From Candidatus Nomurabacteria bacterium (GTDB lineage: Bacteria; Patescibacteriota; Minisyncoccia; Phycocordibacterales; UBA9973): a stretch of DNA of 56,555 bases. The DNA lies in assembly GCA_037139835.1 (NCBI GenBank), contig JBAXFQ010000004.1, positions 1-56,555 of the forward strand, written 5' to 3'. Both the position numbers and the translations under genes were made by a program. Under the pieces are notes generated by a model, which worked only from the letters and a program-made list of their open reading frames with translations, searched no databases and had not been told where the DNA came from. Below are positions 11,555 to 26,104 of this stretch, piece by piece; position 1 is the first letter of the stretch, and every line of letters starts with the position of its first letter.

Positions 11555-12178
11555 ATGGCAGATACGAAGACCACAAAATATATAATAGGTATAGATGAAG
11601 TCGGCAGAGGTCCTTTGGCTGGTCCGGTAGCTGTATGCGCATTTCTCATAAAAGATGAAAAATTTTTAGAATCAGCCATAGGCAAGGCCTATGGCAAAGT
11701 ACTACCAAAATTAAAAGATTCTAAAAAATTAAGTAAAAAACAAAGAGAAGTTTGGTTTGAATTTCTTAAATTACAAAAGAAAGAGGGGGATTGCGACTAT
11801 GCTGTGTCTTTTGTCTCCCCTGAAAATATTGATAAATTCGGAATTGCTAAATGTATACAGAAAGCTTTGAATGAATCCTTGCAGAAAGTCGCTTCACAGA
11901 ATCTTTCTTCATTTCAGATTTTTCTCGACGGTGGATTAAAAGCTCCAATTGAGTATGTTAATCAAGAGACGATCATAAGAGGGGACGAGCTTCATCCTGT
12001 TATTTCTATGGCATCCATCGTGGCGAAAGTTACTCGAGATGCTGTGATGACTAAATATGCGAAAGACTACCCAGAATATGGTTTCGAGTGTCATTCAGGC
12101 TATGGCACCAAGGCTCATTATGATGCTATTAAAAAGCACGGCCAGACCCCTATCCATCGCAAGAGTTACATACATTAG
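11555..12178 (+). CDS. rnhB: Ribonuclease HII
   Basis: GIDEVGRGPLAGPV, DSKKLS, ASIVAKVTRD, GYGT. Confidence 0.97.
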   Translation: MADTKTTKYIIGIDEVGRGPLAGPVAVCAFLIKDEKFLESAIGKAYGKVLPKLKDSKKLSKKQREVWFEFLKLQKKEGDCDYAVSFVSPENIDKFGIAKCIQKALNESLQKVASQNLSSFQIFLDGGLKAPIEYVNQETIIRGDELHPVISMASIVAKVTRDAVMTKYAKDYPEYGFECHSGYGTKAHYDAIKKHGQTPIHRKSYIH

Positions 12179-17074: not shown

Positions 17075-17244
17075 ATATTTTTTGTTCAGTAATTTACTCC
17101 CTGTTCCCGGCTTTATGATTTAATTAAATACTACAACTCTTAGGGATTATGTCAAGTATAATAATATTATTACTAGAGTGTATATTTTGCTTTTTTGTTT
17201 TATTTTTGGTACTATAATTTAGTCTATTAAATAGATAGATTTAT

Positions 17245-17375
17245 TCCGTGGTAGCTTTGCGGTGGAGTGAGAGTTGGGAAGGGATCCAACTTGCAAGACC
17301 TTGAACATTTTGTAATCAAAAAGTGAAAGGTATACAGATCCTGTAAGGATGTCGCCTGTAAGGTGATCGCTCATA
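17245..17375 (+). pseudogene. Degenerate tRNA-Asn 5' copy interrupted by an 81-nt structured insertion
   Basis: 17245-17269 matches the tRNA 5' end at 21/25 positions and 17351-17375 matches the next 25 nt at 19/25; no T arm. Confidence 0.65.
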
Positions 17376-17423
17376 CAGCTAGCTAAATCGAAATATGTTC
17401 TGTTCAATTAAAGTAAAATACAT

Positions 17424-17498
17424 TCCGTGGTAGCTCAGCGGTAGAGCGGTCGCCTGTTAAGCGATTGGTCGTAGGTTCGATCCCTACCCACGGAGCCA
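17424..17498 (+). tRNA. tRNA-Asn (GTT)
   Basis: Acceptor stem TCCGTGG/CCACGGA, D arm, anticodon loop CTGTTAA, GGTTCGATCC T arm and encoded CCA. Confidence 0.97.
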
Positions 17499-17533
17499 AA
17501 ACAAAAACCCCCAGAAATGGGGTGTTTTTATTT

Positions 17534-17660
17534 TGGCTCCGTGAGCAAAGTATCTGCATACTTTGCGTGGTAGGCGATCGAAAAGCTTTTCGTTTTTCGG
17601 TATTAACCGAAACGAAAAGGTATACTGTTCTCGTAGAGAAAGATATCCCTACCCACGGAG
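17534..17660. repeat. Inverted plus direct copies of the tRNA-Asn 3' end around a structured core
   Basis: TGGCTCCGTG..[palindrome]..GTGGTAGGCGATCGAA (inverted copy) and ATCCCTACCCACGGAG (direct copy). Confidence 0.8.
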
Positions 17661-17757
17661 ACTGTGAACATTGTGCACTTTGTGAACTTCCTATAAGGTA
17701 GATATTTTTGTAGTATAATGTTAGAAGGTCTATTTTATTTACTAAATTAAATTTTAT

Positions 17758-18738
17758 ATGAAATGCAATAAAGGTTTCGCTCCACTAATTCTATTAGCTA
17801 TAATTGTAGGTGCTTTAGTCATAGGTGGAGGTGCGTATTATTTAGGAAAGAGTTCAAAAGTTGAAAATAAAGAAGTAAAGGTTGAAGAAAATAATTTACC
17901 AAGTAATCCAGAAATTAATAAGAATCAAAATTTACCAGTTGTTAATAATAATCAACAGAGTAGCATTTCTTCAATCACAGTCCTTTCTCCAAATGGAGGA
18001 GAGACATATAGTACTAGTACGACAATTAAGCAAATTCCAGTAACATGGAAAAGTTCTGGGATAATAAGTAAAAATGTTGCTATTTATATTAAAAACATTT
18101 CTACGGGGAATGAAATAGTTAATTCAATAGTTCCAGATAATGGTTCAACAAATATTTATGGAGTTTCTACTGGAAATTATAAAATAAGAATCTGTAGTAC
18201 TAATCAATCATCTAAAAATTTTGAAGTTGCTTATGACCCAGATTGTGCAACAGCTTCAGACTATTCAGACAATTCATTTACAGTAAATTCTGTAAATAAT
18301 AAAAATAATACTACAAACGGTGTTTATACGAGCACAACAGATCACTTCAGTCTATCTATGCCAACCAACATGACTCTTTCTGAACCTGACCCAACCATCG
18401 CTACATATACTTCAGCTCACTATTACTATGTTCAATATAAGCAAGGAGTAGTACCCTCATTGTCCTATTTTAGAAATATTTCTGTTTCAGATGAAGTATG
18501 CACAGGAGAACCAGTTACTATAGATAATATTCAGTATAAGAGAGCAGATGATATAGGAGGAGGGATGGAATCATCTTCACTTCAATCAAGTTACTGTACA
18601 ATTCATGCGGGTAAAACCTACAGATTATTTTTTGAATGGACATATGCACGCTTCACTGGTTCTACTCCTGATCGAAACGTTGCTACAGTAAAATTTAATA
18701 ATGAATTAGATCAGTTGCAAATCCAGTTTATTGACTAA
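17758..18738 (+). CDS. Surface protein with a prepilin-like N-terminus and an Ig-like SPNGGE domain
   Basis: KGFAPLILLAIIVG N-terminus; ITVLSPNGGE...DYSDNSFTV. Confidence 0.75.
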   Translation: MKCNKGFAPLILLAIIVGALVIGGGAYYLGKSSKVENKEVKVEENNLPSNPEINKNQNLPVVNNNQQSSISSITVLSPNGGETYSTSTTIKQIPVTWKSSGIISKNVAIYIKNISTGNEIVNSIVPDNGSTNIYGVSTGNYKIRICSTNQSSKNFEVAYDPDCATASDYSDNSFTVNSVNNKNNTTNGVYTSTTDHFSLSMPTNMTLSEPDPTIATYTSAHYYYVQYKQGVVPSLSYFRNISVSDEVCTGEPVTIDNIQYKRADDIGGGMESSSLQSSYCTIHAGKTYRLFFEWTYARFTGSTPDRNVATVKFNNELDQLQIQFID

Positions 18739-18853
18739 TAATTAAAACTTATTCGAACAGTCCAAAGTTCGGAGCCAAAATTTTAAGCCATATTTTATAA
18801 TGGTTCTTTTTCGGAGGTTAGTATAAGTTTGAACCTAATGATACAATACTTGT

Positions 18854-19474
18854 ATGAATATTATTTTAATAATAATTGTGCTAATAACTATTTGGTCAAT
18901 TTTTGGACATTTTTCTTCTAGAGTAGAACAAGCCGAATATTCAGTAATAAAGAAATCAAAAGGTTATGAAATTAGAGAATATCCTTCGCACATAATCGCT
19001 CAAACAATAATAGGAGGTTCATATGAAGATGCAATGAATGGGGGTTTTCGAATCATTGCTGGATATATCTTTGGAGACAATACAAAAAAAGAAAGTATTG
19101 CAATGACTGCACCAGTAAAAGAGCAAAAATTTGTCTCAGAAAAAATAGCAATGACTGCGCCTGTTTCGCTTAATTCTCTAGGCAACTCACGGGTAGTTTC
19201 TTTTGTTATGCCGAAATCATATTCGCTAGAGACTCTTCCTGTCCCAAATGATTCACGCGTGAAGCTTGTAAAAGTCCCATCAAAAAAAATGGCTGCCCTA
19301 CGTTTTTCTTGGTCAAGAAATAGTAATAGAATTAACAAAATGGAGAAAAAACTACTTTCATTTCTTTCGCGAGATAAAATAGAAACAATTAATAGTCCCT
19401 TATATGCTGGGTATAATGCACCTTGGACTCCTCCATGGATGACTCGTAATGAAATAATGATAGAGATTAATTAA
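18854..19474 (+). CDS. SOUL family heme-binding protein
   Basis: [25 protein letters not shown] (twice), [19 protein letters not shown]. Confidence 0.93.
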
Positions 19475-19482
19475 TTAATTTT

Positions 19483-19839
19483 ATGAATAAATTAACTGAA
19501 AAAGAAAAAAGAGTAATTATTGATAAAAATACAGAAGCCCCATTTACGGGAGAGTATGTGAACAATAAGGAAACAGGAGTGTATGTTTGTCGACAATGTG
19601 AAGCTCCACTGTATAATTCAAAAGATAAATTTGAATCTGATTGTGGTTGGCCATCTTTTGATGATGAAATATCTGGAGCGGTGAATAAAAGCTTGGACGC
19701 AGATAAAATACGTACAGAAATTACTTGCGCAAAGTGTGGCGGTCATCTGGGCCATTTATTTATAGGTGAAAATTTAACAGATAAAAATCGAAGATATTGT
19801 GTGAATTCGATTTCAATGAAATTTATTTCTGGAAAATAA
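19483..19839 (+). CDS. msrB: Peptide-methionine (R)-S-oxide reductase
   Basis: [34 protein letters not shown]. Confidence 0.97.
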
Positions 19840-19848
19840 TTTAAATTT

Positions 19849-20337
19849 ATGATTAAAAAAATAGTTTTAGCTGGAGGTTGTTTTTGGGGACTTGAAGAAT
19901 TAATTAGAAGTCAGCCTGGAGTATTAGATACTACTGTTGGATATACAGGTGGGTTTGTAGATAATCCAACATATGAAAATCATGCTGGTCATGCTGAATC
20001 TGTTGAGATTACATACGATGATGCAGTAACTTCATATAAAAATCTTTTAGATTTTTTCTTTCAAATTCACAATCCTACAACTCTAAATCAGCAAGGTAAT
20101 GACAATGGGACATCTTATCGCTCTGCAATTTTTTACGAAAATGAAGAAGAAAAAGAAGAAGCGATAAAATTTATTGATATCGTAAATAATTCAAAACGTT
20201 GGAATGATAGAGTGGTAACAACTCTTGAACCATTAGTAAAATTCTACAAAGCTGAAGACTATCATCAGGATTATCTCCAGAAAAACCCTGAAGGCTATAC
20301 ATGTCATGCTATATATTTTGATAGTTATTTAAAATAG
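19849..20337 (+). CDS. msrA: Peptide-methionine (S)-S-oxide reductase
   Basis: [30 protein letters not shown]. Confidence 0.97.
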
Positions 20338-20486
20338 TTATTTGAATCTCATCCCAAGCTCGTAGTTAAATTATAAAACATATTTTTAAATGGGTATTTT
20401 TTGTGGATAAATCATTCTTGATTTTTAAAATTTTTAAAATATAATATTTATTGTCGAGATTATAAATTATTAATTTTATAAGTTTT

Positions 20487-20870
20487 ATGTTCAAAAATAA
20501 AATTTTCAATTACATCATCTTTACATCTTTAGTTTTGTTTTTCACAAGTTCTTTAACTGTAAAAATTGCTTCTGCTGATCCAGAATTACCAGATAATGTA
20601 AAAATAAATACTAGTTTAGATGGTTCTAGTACTACTATTATAGTGGATTCAAAGCCAGGGTTTACAACTAATGTTCAAACTAATTGTTTGAATGGTAAAT
20701 GTACTCATAGTGCTACTTCTACTCCATTAACTGACACCGACATTAAAAAAATGCAGGATAATATAAAAAAACAACAAGATACTATGGAAAAGTTATGGAA
20801 GATGCAAGAAGATTTATTTGATCAGCAACAGAAGATGTTTGATGAATTAATGAGTTACAGTTGGTTTTAA
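20487..20870 (+). CDS. Secreted hypothetical protein
   Basis: Signal peptide, CxNGKC and a coiled-coil C-terminus. Confidence 0.75.
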   Translation: MFKNKIFNYIIFTSLVLFFTSSLTVKIASADPELPDNVKINTSLDGSSTTIIVDSKPGFTTNVQTNCLNGKCTHSATSTPLTDTDIKKMQDNIKKQQDTMEKLWKMQEDLFDQQQKMFDELMSYSWF

Positions 20871-21008
20871 ATATAAATAAAAAGCACTACTTAACTGTAG
20901 GGCTTTTTATTTATTCACTATACTCATTTAAAAATCACTCCAATTCTGGAACAAATATATTAATATAATATGTAATTATATTATTTTCAGTATAATAATA
21001 TGTTAAAA

Positions 21009-21431
21009 TTATTTATATGGATGCTCAGTTATTGGATTTATAAAATTAATCATTTGTTTATTTTTAAATAATCTATAAATAACAATAAATGACAATATTA
21101 ATGAAACAAAAGGGAAGATCATAAGAATAAAATCTGGTAAATTAATCCCTAAAAAAAACATATCAAATAAAAAAATAAATAAAGGAAAAATAATAATTGC
21201 TACAAAAGAAGATGCGGCAAAATATCCGAGATTTCTTCCTTTAATGTCGTTTAGTTTTTTAAAACGATTAGAAGCCACCAGAAGTAAAATCGGGTTAATA
21301 AAGAAAAAATAATATATCCATGATTGTAAGCCCTGTCTTATCCACAATAAATGAGGAAATATAAAATACATAATCGGTATTAGGCAACACAACAATATAA
21401 TTATACCAAGAATACGATTAAATATTTTCAT
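21009..21431 (-). CDS. Hypothetical membrane protein (about 4 TM helices)
   Basis: 140-aa hydrophobic ORF with no competing frame. Confidence 0.6.
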   Translation of the reverse strand: MKIFNRILGIIILLCCLIPIMYFIFPHLLWIRQGLQSWIYYFFFINPILLLVASNRFKKLNDIKGRNLGYFAASSFVAIIIFPLFIFLFDMFFLGINLPDFILMIFPFVSLILSFIVIYRLFKNKQMINFINPITEHPYK

Positions 21432-21511
21432 AATTGTTTAAATAATAAATTAATGTAATAATATAAGTAGTCAAACTTACATTATTAATCATAGCATAAT
21501 ATTATAATTTT

Positions 21512-21739
21512 ATGGAAAATACTATTAGTGAAAAGAAATCTTTTGTTTGTGTTAAATGTGGAAATATAACTTATACTTCAGGTAAAATTTCTACTACCGG
21601 CGGTATTTTAACTAAAATTCTTAATCTTCAAAATAATAAATTTATTACTGTTTCTTGTTTAAAATGTGGATACACTGAATTATATAAAACAGTAACATCG
21701 GGTATTGAGAATGTAGCTGATTTCCTTATTGGTAAATAA
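21512..21739 (+). CDS. Zinc-ribbon protein (DUF2082-like)
   Basis: CVKCG ... CLKCGYTELY. Confidence 0.85.
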   Translation: MENTISEKKSFVCVKCGNITYTSGKISTTGGILTKILNLQNNKFITVSCLKCGYTELYKTVTSGIENVADFLIGK

Positions 21740-21870
21740 TTTATTCTTTTGTTATACTCTTCCTAACTTAACCTCAAGTTTGGAAGAGTATTTTCAATTC
21801 ATATTTTATAGTGGTTTTTAAAAGACAGTTTGGGGTTCGAATTTAAAACATTTGATGTTACAATAAATAT

Positions 21871-22329
21871 ATGGGAGAAGAATTTTTAGATATTATTGGT
21901 CTTTTTGTGTTTATTTCAGGTTTTATTATTGGATTAGGTGCAGTTACAGTTATTGATTTTCATGGATTTTTAGGTAGAAAATCTTCATATTGGACTGAAG
22001 CAACAATTAGAACCCATAAGGTAACTAAACCTTTAATTTGGACTGGTATTTGTCTGGTGATTATTGGTGGTCTTATTTTTTATAGGAATGAACCATTTTC
22101 AGGAATTCCTTTGATTCACTTAATTGGGGCACTAGTGTTAATCCTGAACGGTATTTTCCTTTCTTTTTATGTAAGTCCATTTTTAATTAAGAAAGAAAAA
22201 GAAGGCAAACAAAAAGAACTTTTACCATATTCTCTACAGTTTAAAATAATGTTGAGTTTAATATTTTCTGATATTGTTTGGTGGGGGTCACTTTTTCTCC
22301 TTGTATGGTTTATTGTTAGAAAATTTTAG
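21871..22329 (+). CDS. Hypothetical membrane protein (4 TM helices)
   Basis: Hydrophobic ORF with a GLGAVTVID motif; -10 box just upstream. Confidence 0.8.
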   Translation: MGEEFLDIIGLFVFISGFIIGLGAVTVIDFHGFLGRKSSYWTEATIRTHKVTKPLIWTGICLVIIGGLIFYRNEPFSGIPLIHLIGALVLILNGIFLSFYVSPFLIKKEKEGKQKELLPYSLQFKIMLSLIFSDIVWWGSLFLLVWFIVRKF

Positions 22330-22346
22330 ATTTATATAGTAGAGAT

Positions 22347-22802
22347 ATGATAAAAAAAATAAATAAAAATATTTTTGATACTCGATTTAAACCAGATTTA
22401 ACTCCCAAAGAAATGCTCGAACTTGGTGTGTTTGGTGGATTGTATTTTTCTGACAAACCAAAAGAGTTTCCTGATGATTGGTTTATAAAAGCTAAGTTAT
22501 CTTCTGATGGGAAACGCCATAAAGAACTTAACTTTTTCGGTGTAAATGCTAGTCAGCCACTTTCTGTGTGGCAAACAAAAGGTTGGGTTCGACCACAAGA
22601 CCCACGTGGATGGTTTCAATGGTATTGCAGATATTATATAGGGCGTAGGACTATTGATGATGATAGACAGATCAAAAGATGGTTAGCTATGCGTAGGCAT
22701 ATAATTCAAATTAAAAATAATTGTCGAACTGGAGATATCTTCTGCCGACCTAGGCAAAGACAGGCATTATTGCATTGGGCTTATGATTCTAGAAAGATGT
22801 AA
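22347..22802 (+). CDS. Conserved hypothetical protein
   Basis: LTPKEMLELGVFGG, DPRGWFQWYCRYY and RQALLHWAYD motifs; function not known to me. Confidence 0.85.
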   Translation: MIKKINKNIFDTRFKPDLTPKEMLELGVFGGLYFSDKPKEFPDDWFIKAKLSSDGKRHKELNFFGVNASQPLSVWQTKGWVRPQDPRGWFQWYCRYYIGRRTIDDDRQIKRWLAMRRHIIQIKNNCRTGDIFCRPRQRQALLHWAYDSRKM

Positions 22803-22937
22803 AAACATTCCTATTTATTTAATACATCAAATCGATTAATAAAAATTCCTTAAAAATATGGCTAATAAAATTTATTCATTTAAAGTCATAACCATAGGTT
22901 CTCGTTATTTATTATTTTTTTTGTTATAATTAACAAT

Positions 22938-23333
22938 ATGGATACATATAATTGGTACTCAAAGTTAATCAAACCATCATGGTCGCCACCGTCGTATCTT
23001 TTTGGTCCAGTCTGGACATCTTTGTATATATTAATTTTTATTTCTTTTGGTAAAGTTTTTATGATGGCTTGGAATAAGCAGATTCCTTTCGTTGTTGCCT
23101 TACCTTTTATTTTAAATTTATTTTTTAATGCTATATTTACAACTTTGCAATTCCGTCTACAGAATAATTTCTTGGCAGCTATAGATATATCTCTAGTATT
23201 AGTAACTCTTATTTGTTCTATGATTTTTATTTTTCCATATGCAAGATGGATCACATATATTCAAATTCCATATTTATTGTGGGTTTCTTTTGCAACAATC
23301 TTGCAGTTTACAATAACATATTTAAATAAATAA
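22938..23333 (+). CDS. tspO: TspO/MBR family tryptophan-rich sensory protein
   Basis: WYSKLIKPSWSPPSYLFGPVWT and PYLLWVSFATIL. Confidence 0.93.
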   Translation: MDTYNWYSKLIKPSWSPPSYLFGPVWTSLYILIFISFGKVFMMAWNKQIPFVVALPFILNLFFNAIFTTLQFRLQNNFLAAIDISLVLVTLICSMIFIFPYARWITYIQIPYLLWVSFATILQFTITYLNK

Positions 23334-23464
23334 TCATGTGAGTTTGTGATATAAATCATAAATATTTATATAGAAAATATTTAATTACTGAACACAAGAA
23401 AATACAATTGCTTTTTTAAGTGATTTATATTGCTGTAAATGATAAAATACAATTAAAGCTTCAA

Positions 23465-23544
23465 GCCAACGAACCTGCTTTAAAAGGCAGACAACACGGA
23501 TGGGGAAATAATAACTCTTAGAGGTTCGAATCCTCTCGTTGGCA
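23465..23544 (+). ncRNA. tRNA-like RNA (acceptor stem and T arm, no canonical D or anticodon arm)
   Basis: GCCAACG/CGTTGGC plus an A discriminator; AGAGG-TTCGAAT-CCTCT; TGATAAAAT promoter-like box upstream. Confidence 0.55.
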
Positions 23545-23679
23545 CGTAAAGTAAACTGCTTTACTTTACGTAGAGGATTCGAAAGATTATTTGTTACTTT
23601 GTAATCAAAGTCGAATAATACCCGAATCGGTAAGATTCGAATCCTCTCGTTGGCACGTAAAGTAAACTGCTTTACTTTA
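23545..23679. repeat. Palindrome, inverted T arm, structured core and direct repeat of the tRNA-like 3' end
   Basis: TTCGAATCCTCTCGTTGGCACGTAAAGTAAACTGCTTTACTTTA occurs at 23525 and 23636; AGAGGATTCGAA is the inverted copy at 23572. Confidence 0.85.
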
Positions 23680-23746
23680 TAACATAAAAAGGCCTCGTAA
23701 AACGAGGCTTTTTACTATCATTTATATATTTTGATACAATATATAA

Positions 23747-24970
23747 ATGTTAAAAAAGGCAGACAATCTATATCTTCATGCGGACGGGGATTCATTCTTC
23801 GTGGCTTGTGAGGTGTCTCAGAATCCTAAATACAAGGGCTTGCCTGTAGTGGTGGGTGAAGATAGAGGTATAGCAGTAGCTATGAGTTACGAAGCCAAGA
23901 AGCTGGGTGTAACTCGTGGTATGCCTGTATTTCAAATAAAAAAACAATTTCCGAAAGTTATCATTCTTTCTCATCATTTTGATCTATATCGAAAGATATC
24001 TGATGATGTTTATAATATATTCTTGTCGTATCTTGAGATGGTTGAAATATATAGTATAGATGAATGTTTTATGGTTGTTAAACCTTCAGATATAAAACAT
24101 GCTGGTTCTGTGGAAAAACTCGTAGAGAATATTAAAAATGAAATTAAAAGTAAAATAGGTGTGACTTACTCTTTTGGGCTAGGACGAACAAAAGTTTTAG
24201 CAAAAACAGCTTCCAAGCTTGAGAAGCCAAATGGTACAGTGTTACTTTTAAGTGAACAAGACGAAGAAAGGGCACTTAAAAAAACTTTAATAAAAGATGT
24301 TTGGGGTATAGGCAAGCAGACTGTCCCCAGGTTGTACGATATGGGTATAAGAACGGCTTATGACTTCGTTCATTATTCTAGGGAGTATATTGAAAAGTAT
24401 TTTCCTCAAACATTGCTTTATATAAAGCAAGAGTTATCTGGTGAATCTGTATTAGATTTCGATCCTAATCATGACCCAAGAGATCAAAAGTCTATCCAAT
24501 CTACTGCAACTTTCAAGCCTGCAACGAATGATCCAAAAATAATTTTTGCAGAACTTTCTTCAAATATTGAGAGAGCATGTGAAAATGCAAGAGAATTAAA
24601 TCTTATGACAAATTCAGTTTCATGTTTTGTAAAAAATACAAATTTTGTTATTCGTACTAAGGATTGTCATTTACCTCTATATACAAATAATCCAAGTGTG
24701 ATACTTAACTGTTTGGATTCTATTTTTAATAAATTATTACAAGATGATGAAAAAATACGATCTACTGGAGTTACCTTGCATAATTTGCGTCGCAGCGAAG
24801 AGGTACCAAGAGATTTATTTGGTGTACAGGATAAGTCAGAATCTAAAAATATAATAGAAGAGGTATGTGACATCATAAAAGCCAGATTTGGTAACGACGC
24901 ACTAAAACACGCATCTTCACTTAAGGGAAGTAAAAAACAAAAAGGGAATTCATTCCCTAAACCGCATTAG
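23747..24970 (+). CDS. dinB: Y-family DNA polymerase (Pol IV/UmuC-like)
   Basis: HADGDSFFVACE, SYEAKKLGVTRGMP, YSIDECF, AKTASKLEKPNG, VWGIG. Confidence 0.9.
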   Translation: MLKKADNLYLHADGDSFFVACEVSQNPKYKGLPVVVGEDRGIAVAMSYEAKKLGVTRGMPVFQIKKQFPKVIILSHHFDLYRKISDDVYNIFLSYLEMVEIYSIDECFMVVKPSDIKHAGSVEKLVENIKNEIKSKIGVTYSFGLGRTKVLAKTASKLEKPNGTVLLLSEQDEERALKKTLIKDVWGIGKQTVPRLYDMGIRTAYDFVHYSREYIEKYFPQTLLYIKQELSGESVLDFDPNHDPRDQKSIQSTATFKPATNDPKIIFAELSSNIERACENARELNLMTNSVSCFVKNTNFVIRTKDCHLPLYTNNPSVILNCLDSIFNKLLQDDEKIRSTGVTLHNLRRSEEVPRDLFGVQDKSESKNIIEEVCDIIKARFGNDALKHASSLKGSKKQKGNSFPKPH

Positions 24971-25002
24971 TGTGATATTATCTACATACAACTTAATAGT
25001 TT

Positions 25003-25152
25003 GATATCAGGAGTATGGCGAGAGCACTGGCTCAACGACCCATCAGCAACCCTTAGAGATAAGAAGGTGCTAAATCCAGCCAATAGTTGAAAAACTATAT
25101 GGAAAGATAAGACTAGTCATCTATATCTTTCCTCTTATTAGAGGAATTTTTT
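25003..25152 (+). promoter_or_regulatory. SAM-I (S-box) riboswitch with terminator
   Basis: ATCAGGAG..GAGAGCACTGGCTC..GAC..CAGCAACC..GGTGCTAAATCC..GAAAGAT, followed by TTCCTC/GAGGAA plus a T tract, directly upstream of metK. Confidence 0.92.
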
Positions 25153-25165
25153 AATTTAAAAATGT

Positions 25166-26104
25166 ATGAGTATAAAGACGGCGGAATTTGTGAGTCCTAA
25201 ACATCCAGACAAAATTTGTGATTATATAGCAGATAGTATTCTCGATTCTTTTTTGGAAGGCGATAAAGATAGTCGTTGTGCGATAGAAGTAATGGGAGGA
25301 CATAATTTGATAACAATAAACGGAGAAGTGACTTCAAAAATAAAAATAGATATTGAAAAAATCGTAAAAGATATAGTTGGTAAGGATAATAAAATTATTT
25401 CAAATATAGTAACACAAAGTCTCCAAATAGCTTTTGGTGTAGATAACGGGGGAGCAGGAGATCAAGGAATAATGAAAGGTTATGCAACGAATGAGACAGA
25501 AGAATATTTACCTCTCGAGTATAGTCTTGCTCGTAATCTTTGCATGAAAGTATTTGAAGTTTATCCTTATGATGGTAAGACTCAGGTAACTATAGAAAAC
25601 GGAAAAGTAAAAACAGTTGTATGTAGTTTTCAAAATACAAAAAATGATAAATTGTTAGAACTGGTAAAAAGTATTATTGAAGCAAAAGAGTATCATATTA
25701 ATCCATCTGGTGAATGGAATCAAGGAGGTTTTGATGCTGATACAGGTCTTTCAGGTAGGAAGCTTATAGTAGATAATTATGGACCAGAAGTGACAATAGG
25801 CGGCGGATCATTTTCTGGTAAGGATTATACTAAAGTCGATAGATCTGGGGCTTATATGGCTCGTATGGTAGCTGTAGACTTACTTAAAAAACATAAGGCA
25901 AGGGAAGTTTATACAAAGCTTGCATATGCTATAGGTAAAAGTGAACCAGTCATGGCAGTAGCAGTGATAGATGGGAAAGAAATTGATATAGAAGGATATG
26001 ATTTGTCACCAAGAGGTATATATAAGAAATTAAAACTCGACAATGTAAAGTATAGAGATACTTGTACTTGGGGTCATTTCGGAAGAAGTTTTAATTGGGA
26101 TTAG
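25166..26104 (+). CDS. metK: S-adenosylmethionine synthetase (short form)
   Basis: HPDKICD, GAGDQG, DGKTQVT, DTGLSGRKLIVDNYG, GGGSFSGKDYTKVDRS, GHFG. Confidence 0.97.
   Translation: MSIKTAEFVSPKHPDKICDYIADSILDSFLEGDKDSRCAIEVMGGHNLITINGEVTSKIKIDIEKIVKDIVGKDNKIISNIVTQSLQIAFGVDNGGAGDQGIMKGYATNETEEYLPLEYSLARNLCMKVFEVYPYDGKTQVTIENGKVKTVVCSFQNTKNDKLLELVKSIIEAKEYHINPSGEWNQGGFDADTGLSGRKLIVDNYGPEVTIGGGSFSGKDYTKVDRSGAYMARMVAVDLLKKHKAREVYTKLAYAIGKSEPVMAVAVIDGKEIDIEGYDLSPRGIYKKLKLDNVKYRDTCTWGHFGRSFNWD

Follow-up and report, generated by a model that had tools for sequence, protein, structure and literature searches.

A hairpin-rich module behind a tRNA-like gene belongs to a large family of tRNA-linked structured repeats in Patescibacteria

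The window analysed here is a stretch of 56,555 nt (contig C4) from a 768-kb, 26-contig genome of a Candidatus Nomurabacteria bacterium (G000; 32% G+C, 40 tRNA genes and one tmRNA gene), and the element of interest lies on its + strand at 23545-23679, directly behind a tRNA-like small RNA gene (23465-23544, + strand) that acts as its host. This gene has an acceptor-like stem (GCCAACG/CGTTGGC), a hairpin and a canonical T arm (AGAGG-TTCGAAT-CCTCT), and is preceded on the same strand by a putative promoter (TTTATA-18-TACAAT, 23424-23453, 9/12 in a consensus scan). It was rejected as a true tRNA because it scores 24.3 bits against the Rfam tRNA model, below the gathering score of 29, is not called by ARAGORN and has no anticodon arm that aligns, either in G000 or in its homolog in genome G205. 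Only these two of the 151 genomes of the family carry the gene (window 23465-23544; 1480-1558 of locus L069 in G205), both with the conserved stretch GGATGGGGAAWTAATAA. The G205 homolog has its own promoter (TTGACA/TATCAT) and its own terminator, shows compensatory changes in the acceptor stem and runs directly into the terminator with no module. A metagenome scan for the tRNA-like gene returned only a G205-like contig, with no allele carrying more or fewer units, and none of the 12 dinB orthologs of congeners has the 23545-23679 locus upstream. Some 0.9 kb from the G205 gene lies a reverse-transcriptase fragment (L069 2-604) with the motifs LGNVTSQ and YCDDF, which looks to be of DGR type.

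The element is built from hairpins interspersed with copies of the host gene end. Hairpin H (23545-23570) is the palindrome CGTAAAGTAAA-CTGC-TTTACTTTACG, with an 11-bp stem and a CTGC loop, aligning to the H helix of the family described below. Next comes segment t (23571-23583), which repeats the host T-loop and 3′ T-stem strand in inverted orientation. It reads TAGAGGATTCGAA, the reverse complement of TTCGAATCCTCTA, where the host gene has TTCGAATCCTCTC, giving a match at 12 of 13 positions. Hairpin S1 (23584-23621) carries the 12-mer TTTGTAATCAAA, found at just two places in the genome (17309 and 23598), and ends in a conserved ATAC (23618-23621) whose start is overlapped by the hairpin proper (23584-23619). 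Hairpin S2 (23622-23639, CGAATC-GGTAA-GATTCG) carries the family-invariant GTA in its loop and leads into X′ (23640-23655), where the end of the host T-loop, the 3′ T-stem and acceptor strands and the discriminator recur in direct orientation, after which a second copy of H (23656-23679) closes the element. The second H belongs to a tandem unit, X-H-t-S1-S2, of 111 bp present 1.4 times at the locus; the direct repeat spans 47 nt with one mismatch (98%; 23522-23568 against 23633-23679, spacing 111). An earlier note on this stretch, made from the letters alone, had reported the palindrome, the inverted T arm, the S1 12-mer, the ATAC and the GAATC-GGTAA-GATTC hairpin (23623-23639), all of which are present on reading 23200-24100 and 17100-17800; the direct repeat it described is also there, at 47 nt with one mismatch rather than 44 nt. 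Assembly of four DNA runs yielded short contigs only; in three runs a contig joins 23635 back to 23525, going back 111, which reflects either one more 111-bp unit or a loop in the assembly graph.

The copy at 23545-23679 has neither the terminator T0 nor the segment a that are found at other loci (see below), and the sole + strand terminator-like site within 23340-23780 is an intrinsic terminator at 23687-23713. With no terminator between gene and module, and with the promoter and terminator so placed, the module is probably co-transcribed with its tRNA-like host gene.

A canonical sister copy lies some 6 kb upstream, behind tRNA-Asn(GTT) (17424-17498, + strand). Here the gene is followed by a bidirectional terminator T0 (17499-17543), the palindrome of which extends into segment a (TGGCTCCGTG), an inverted 3′ acceptor strand, with 24-nt arms that are 92% complementary. 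The module itself (17544-17660, + strand) comprises H, t, S1, GTATAC, S2 and X′ (ATCCCTACCCACGGAG). Upstream of tRNA-Asn, at 17246-17375 (+ strand), a pseudo tRNA-Asn 5′ part is split by a core of S1/S2 type, which was the first core of the earlier note. More broadly, 17246-17400 holds a core-interrupted partial copy of the tRNA 5′ part, with acceptor and D arm followed by a copy of the anticodon arm; remnants of such a tRNA-Asn pseudo-copy lie upstream of tRNA-Asn in several congeners, and a comparable one precedes tRNA-Asp on contig C1. Between the tRNA-Asn and tRNA-like loci (17758-23333) are ten small ORFs, including SOUL, MsrB, MsrA, a DUF2082 zinc ribbon and TspO, a block that may be flexible cargo at a tRNA gene. 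Further downstream, a SAM (S box) riboswitch (25001-25113, 54.4 bits) stands directly 5′ of metK (25166-26104).

Inspection of the 260 nt downstream of every tRNA gene of the genome revealed the same layout behind about half of them, giving some 20 copies in 768 kb. A profile built from 14 other copies, with those at 23545-23679 and 17270 excluded, gave 21 matches in the genome, among them a copy behind the tmRNA gene, the second unit of a tRNA-Glu array and both of the excluded cores (23550-23640 at E 2.9e-05 and 17296-17349 at E 0.0016). The earlier note had proposed searching the genome and comparing the cores, with the caveat that their likeness might be no better than that of shuffled AT-rich hairpins; these E-values from an independent profile place it above chance level. 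Its count of three copies was too low, the genome holding 21 profile matches and 18 matches to a covariance model (R1) built from 15 copies, including that at 23545-23679. Across the order, R1 has 537 matches in 54 of 61 related genomes, covering all 36 congeners and 17 of 24 other families of the order, with between 1 and 32 copies per congener. For 41 of the 53 profile hits in G000 and 29 fetched loci, a tRNA or tmRNA gene lies on the same strand within 200 nt upstream; the other hits, 12 in all, are later units in arrays or tandems, loci whose gene is masked or goes uncalled, one on a truncated contig and the 23545-23679 copy itself. That this copy belongs to a large family of such repeats in the Patescibacteria, structured and linked to tRNA genes, is held with high confidence. 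Full-text literature searches found no published description of the CPR family.

The minimal module has the order H, t, S1, RTAC, S2 (with S3 in some copies) and X′, its constant part being H - GT - t - AA - S1 - (G)TA(T)AC - S2 - (S3) - X′, and its hosts are tRNA genes, the tmRNA gene and the tRNA-like small RNA gene. Segment t is the reverse complement of the host T-loop and 3′ T-stem strand. In 31 of 34 copies at least 10 of its 12 positions match the neighbouring gene, and it mirrors gene-specific T-loops such as those of tRNA-His (ATTTGAA), tRNA-Asp (ACTTGAA) and tRNA-Gly (AGTCGAA), which bears out the suggestion of the earlier note that the inverted segment is tailored to the local gene. 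X′ restarts within the T-loop and extends to the discriminator; it matches the host at 13/13 positions in 17 of 34 copies and at 11 or more in 20, and is decayed or truncated (8 or fewer of 13) in 9. The few changes in X′ inspected by eye are C-to-T on the C-rich strand, which composition alone explains. Most copies have the bidirectional terminator T0 right behind the gene with its palindrome continuing into segment a, which matches at 6 or more of 7 positions in 24 of 31 copies, while X′ frequently precedes a second terminator unlike T0. T0 and a are separable from the module, occurring on their own at locus L099 and at tRNA-Ser GGA; conversely three of the 34 other copies (L030, L042 and L034) lack T0, like that at 23545-23679. 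The inverted copies continue into the trailer of the gene itself and not into the mature CCA end (for example at tRNA-Lys CTT), and an encoded CCA, considered as a marker of new against old ends, varies among tRNA-Asn loci in a manner unrelated to the module.

Several side observations concern the same slot. A second core type (AGACGGAG..GACGA..CGAGTCGGG..TTTTTnAACAGAAAAATA) fills the place between the inverted T arm and the direct copy on C10 (tRNA-Leu TAA) and C11 (tRNA-Tyr, first unit) of G000 and at L020 and L039, and can stand in tandem with the first type. Behind tRNA-Glu on C22 (4040-6815) two modules are separated by some 2.3 kb of small ORFs and then by a degraded tRNA-Glu 3′ end that has a terminator to itself, and distal units with a Glu-type inverted acceptor recur in three congeners (L021, L026 and L036). 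On C1, ARAGORN calls two tRNAs with unusual anticodons, tRNA-Ser ACT (18355-18442) and tRNA-Ile TAT (11753-11829), the former with a partial tRNA-Ser 5′ copy and an H-type hairpin upstream.

The structure of the module is under selection. In an alignment of 56 copies standard pairs form in 91.9% of cells, compared with 63.1% after shuffling and no more than 50% when the partners are slid, with compensatory changes on both sides at 27 of 28 pairs; the alignment was fitted to the covariance model, which biases these figures in favour of structure. In the H helix 99.6% of cells pair, with compensatory changes at all 9 pairs, and the GTA columns of the S2 loop are invariant. The consensus stems are almost purely Watson-Crick (1338 Watson-Crick, 29 G-U and 13 A-C pairs). 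When 40 copies are folded to minimum energy, the tRNA-sense strand has 63 G-U pairs and the opposite strand 18, and for 29 of the 40 the sense orientation gives the better fold, so that the sense strand is the folding strand, whether as RNA or as single-stranded DNA. GNA-type triloops such as that of S2 are typical of stable DNA mini-hairpins, and together with the near-pure Watson-Crick stems this triloop fits single-stranded DNA as well as RNA. The tRNA-Asn copy is predicted to fold as expected (a:a′, H, t:t′, S1 and S2; z -6.3). For the 248-nt unit at the 23545-23679 locus the predicted fold (-92.2 kcal/mol, z -9.8) has t paired with the proximal 3′ end and the distal copy closing the acceptor, and the two 3′-end copies are therefore predicted to compete. 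Scanned against Rfam at E up to 10, the modules gave only chance-level matches, and identity with a known ribozyme or riboswitch was rejected.

Read as X, T0, rcX, core, X′, the layout corresponds to an inverted triplication with its junctions in hairpins, and the earlier note had suggested target-templated copying by template switching or reverse transcription. In a DNA-polymerase version of the former, replication would switch template at the T arm and terminator hairpins to leave a functionless inverted triplication X - rcX - X, akin to the ODIRA mechanism (PMC11790251). The terminator palindromes that reach the acceptor strand without any module (L099, tRNA-Ser GGA) are consistent with such an event, and to this extent the suggestion stands; it leaves unexplained both the conserved, covarying H/S1/S2 core in 54 of 61 genomes and the copies without T0, such as that at 23545-23679, and as an account of the family it is very unlikely. 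Taken together, segments a and t are complementary to the final 19-22 nt of the tRNA, much as a primer-binding site would be, so that reverse transcription or tRNA-primed copying might have written the target-matched segments. Yet hairpin H interrupts this complement, the inverted copies follow the gene flank into the trailer rather than the mature CCA end, and the genome, at 96.85% complete, has no match to reverse transcriptase (RVT_1). A retroelement with a tRNA primer-binding site was rejected on these grounds, and the retro-mechanism is barely credible.

The nearest known counterparts are the tRNA-linked repeats (TLRs) of E. coli. [quoted passage not shown] They include the rtT/RttR units of the tyrT-tyrV operon and the rrA, rrB and rrF units behind rRNA operons, and the 3′ end of RrB maps 3 nt past the repeat (PMC8144298). 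According to the same account, which cites Egan and Landy (1978) and Rudd (1999) on TLRs, they have been known since 1978 and are without an accepted function (Stenum et al., 2021, PMC8144298). At the tyrT-tyrV locus each tyrT/tyrV unit also carries an inverted 10-mer (GGGGAAGGAT) about 100 nt before its direct copy and upstream of small hairpins with GCA (G-N-A) loops, for which our own arithmetic gives a chance expectation of about 0.002 per unit. This inverted copy of the tRNA 3′ end is a new observation in the tyrT/tyrV units; the rrnB unit has a direct copy only, with no inverted copy of 8 nt or more. Like the E. coli TLRs, the CPR modules follow immediately on a stable-RNA gene, on its own strand, and finish with a copy of its last bases. 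Both can be tandem (178 bp × 3.14 at tyrT, 111 bp × 1.4 at 23545-23679), both can sit between two terminators, and the CPR module and the tyrT units alike hold an inverted copy of the tRNA 3′ end. They differ in that the CPR family has its own conserved H/S1/S2 core, has longer inverted copies (12 nt plus up to 10) and lies behind roughly half of the tRNA genes of a 0.77-Mb genome, and in that RNA products have been shown for the E. coli TLRs whereas the CPR family is known here from DNA. Homology is undetectable, with no RtT match in an Rfam scan of the window at E up to 10 and a best R1 score of 4.9 bits (E 0.9) on the E. coli tyrT locus. In operational terms a TLR is recognised by its location behind a stable-RNA gene, as seen in 41 of 53 hits and at 23545-23679 where the copy abuts the tRNA-like gene, and by a unit 3′ end that repeats the last 18-19 bp or so of that gene, as in the 47-nt, 98% repeat. 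Because both are found, the module fits the operational definition, with the inverted copy as an added feature, and its identification as a Patescibacterial TLR-type module is secure.

As to what the module does, we tentatively favour, at a little short of an even chance, a TLR-type co-transcribed RNA whose inverted and direct copies would pair into a mimic of the tRNA end. As with the E. coli TLRs, the module would be transcribed as a 3′ extension of the host RNA. Such an extension would be obligatory at the 23545-23679 locus, where the first + strand terminator comes only after X′-H, while at loci that bear T0 it would need read-through of T0. Segment t would then pair with X′ and, at loci that have it, a with the acceptor copy, so that a stacked T-stem/acceptor helix is rebuilt around the constant hairpin core and a second 3′ end is presented to the tRNA 3′-end maturation machinery. 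In this way a discrete RNA of some 110-170 nt would be set free, and t would be kept from unfolding the real tRNA. The single promoter-like site before the gene and the single + strand terminator after X′-H at 23545-23679 point this way, as do the spread of the family, the covariation, the excess of G-U pairs on the sense strand in the folds of 40 copies and over A-C in the consensus (29 against 13), the three other copies without T0, the predicted folds, the mapped RrB end and the inverted copy in the tyrT/tyrV units of E. coli, and the lack of an enzyme that tracks the family (see below). Against this, the strong terminator ahead of most copies limits read-through, an essential t:X′ helix sits awkwardly with the decay of X′ in 9 of 34 copies, the copy number of congeners varies from 1 to 32 with core parts swapped between close relatives, and homology to the E. 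coli TLRs is undetectable both in Rfam and with R1.

The variation between loci bears on a second reading, possible if on the unlikely side, in which the module is a gene-less hairpin element acting at the DNA level. Such an element would insert into the T-loop of tRNA-type genes, bringing a replacement 3′ end and terminator and leaving the old 3′ end downstream as X′; it would be mobilised in trans or by host machinery and may carry cargo. The T arm is the sole feature common to the hosts (tRNAs, the tmRNA on C1 and the tRNA-like RNA), occupancy is patchy in the genus, with the module at 13 of 29 tRNA-Gln(TTG) loci and at 9 of 30 tRNA-Asn loci plus one remnant, and the G205 gene and the dinB synteny noted above likewise show sites without it. 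Consistent with displacement, the terminator after X′ often differs from T0 and X′ itself is frequently decayed, while the 2.3-kb gene block between two units behind tRNA-Glu and the stress genes (SOUL, MsrB, MsrA and TspO) between the tRNA-Asn and tRNA-like loci have the look of cargo. Near-identical cores stand at different tRNAs (Asn with Lys-CTT; tmRNA with Arg-GCG). Cores are mosaic, the Asn and Glu copies having an identical H and different cores and the closest relative, G063, having at tRNA-Asn a T0-a-H that is letter-identical to that of G000 with a different S2/S3. The nearly pure Watson-Crick stems also suit DNA. Gene conversion between resident copies can, however, yield common cores as well, retargeting goes unexplained, since an element that moved to another tRNA would leave it chimeric and dead, and the junction is not that of attR, the T-loop left of the core being inverted rather than direct.

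The search for an enzyme that might act on such an element was largely negative. Beyond the lack of RVT_1, the genome has no match to IS110 (PF01548) or TnpB-type (PF07282) proteins, and an IS110-type bridge RNA or an IS200/IS605 omega-RNA was rejected accordingly. A Pfam scan of 14 ORFs across 13.4-26.1 kb, around both loci, found no recombinase; the genome has one tyrosine and one serine recombinase, away from the modules (the only PF00589 and PF00239 matches, on C12 and C8), and a scan of viral contigs for the core motif gave no match. Small GIY-YIG genes, present in G000, are multi-copy, some with stops and often beside tRNA-Gln, and were considered as a partner, as was a RAYT-like Y1 gene; among the 61 genomes nine with modules lack the former and 12 lack the latter, and each gene is present in four of the seven module-free genomes. 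No enzyme among those examined across the 61 genomes (GIY-YIG, RAYT) tracks the family, which weighs against the DNA-level reading.

Integrase-borne islands and phages in tRNA and tmRNA genes leave attL and attR ends, including in tycheposon-like serial integration. The modules resemble them in a direct repeat of the tRNA 3′ end that begins in the T-loop, in the displaced old end downstream and in the cargo-gene arrays at tRNA-Glu, and differ in having no integrase in or beside them (the single tyrosine recombinase lying elsewhere), in an inverted T-loop left of the core, so that the junction is not a C-O-B′ attR, and in an element of only 65-170 bp. Integrase-mediated insertion was rejected because no recombinase lies within or beside the inserted DNA among the ORFs scanned around the two loci. 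REP/BIME-RAYT systems (REPtrons) share short intergenic hairpins with covarying stems behind genes. Outside the window, on C9 (26319-26990), a RAYT-like Y1 (HUH) transposase gene lies between identical 36-nt perfect palindromes (CACAGGCAAGACC..GGTCTTGCCTGTG) in a REPtron-like layout, with relatives carrying 0-6 copies of the gene; the palindrome stem and one H variant share GCAAGAC/GTCTTGC, possibly by chance. These palindromes differ from the module, and unlike the modules REPs hold no copies of the neighbouring gene end. Membership of a REP/RAYT system was rejected given the different flanking palindrome and the 12 module genomes without the gene.

A bolder reading can be imagined in which each tRNA-type gene would carry a cis-encoded antisense-plus-decoy RNA, a three-state switch or scaffold governing 3′-end maturation; we regard this as quite unlikely. 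Segment t, with a, would have two alternative partners, the real 3′ end, whose capture would unfold the tRNA, and the decoy X′. The setting for such a device would be a genome with a CCA-adding enzyme, with most tRNA genes lacking an encoded CCA and with no match to RNase E/G. None of the 61 genomes of the order has an RNase Z match at or near the NCBIfam equivalog cut-off, so that, with 0/61 convincing matches, RNase Z fails to separate genomes with modules from those without. If the antisense-plus-decoy reading were true, the E. coli TLRs would be a remnant of the same ancient device.

With these modules the logic of the TLRs is met a second time, in a family that is far larger and conserved in structure, within tiny CPR genomes that are scarce in non-coding DNA. 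The build from an inverted and a direct copy is common to the tyrT TLRs and the CPR family and is therefore not an oddity of E. coli. The CPR family provides hundreds of natural variants with which the possible roles of such appendages, as processing signal, regulator or insertion scar, may be tested.
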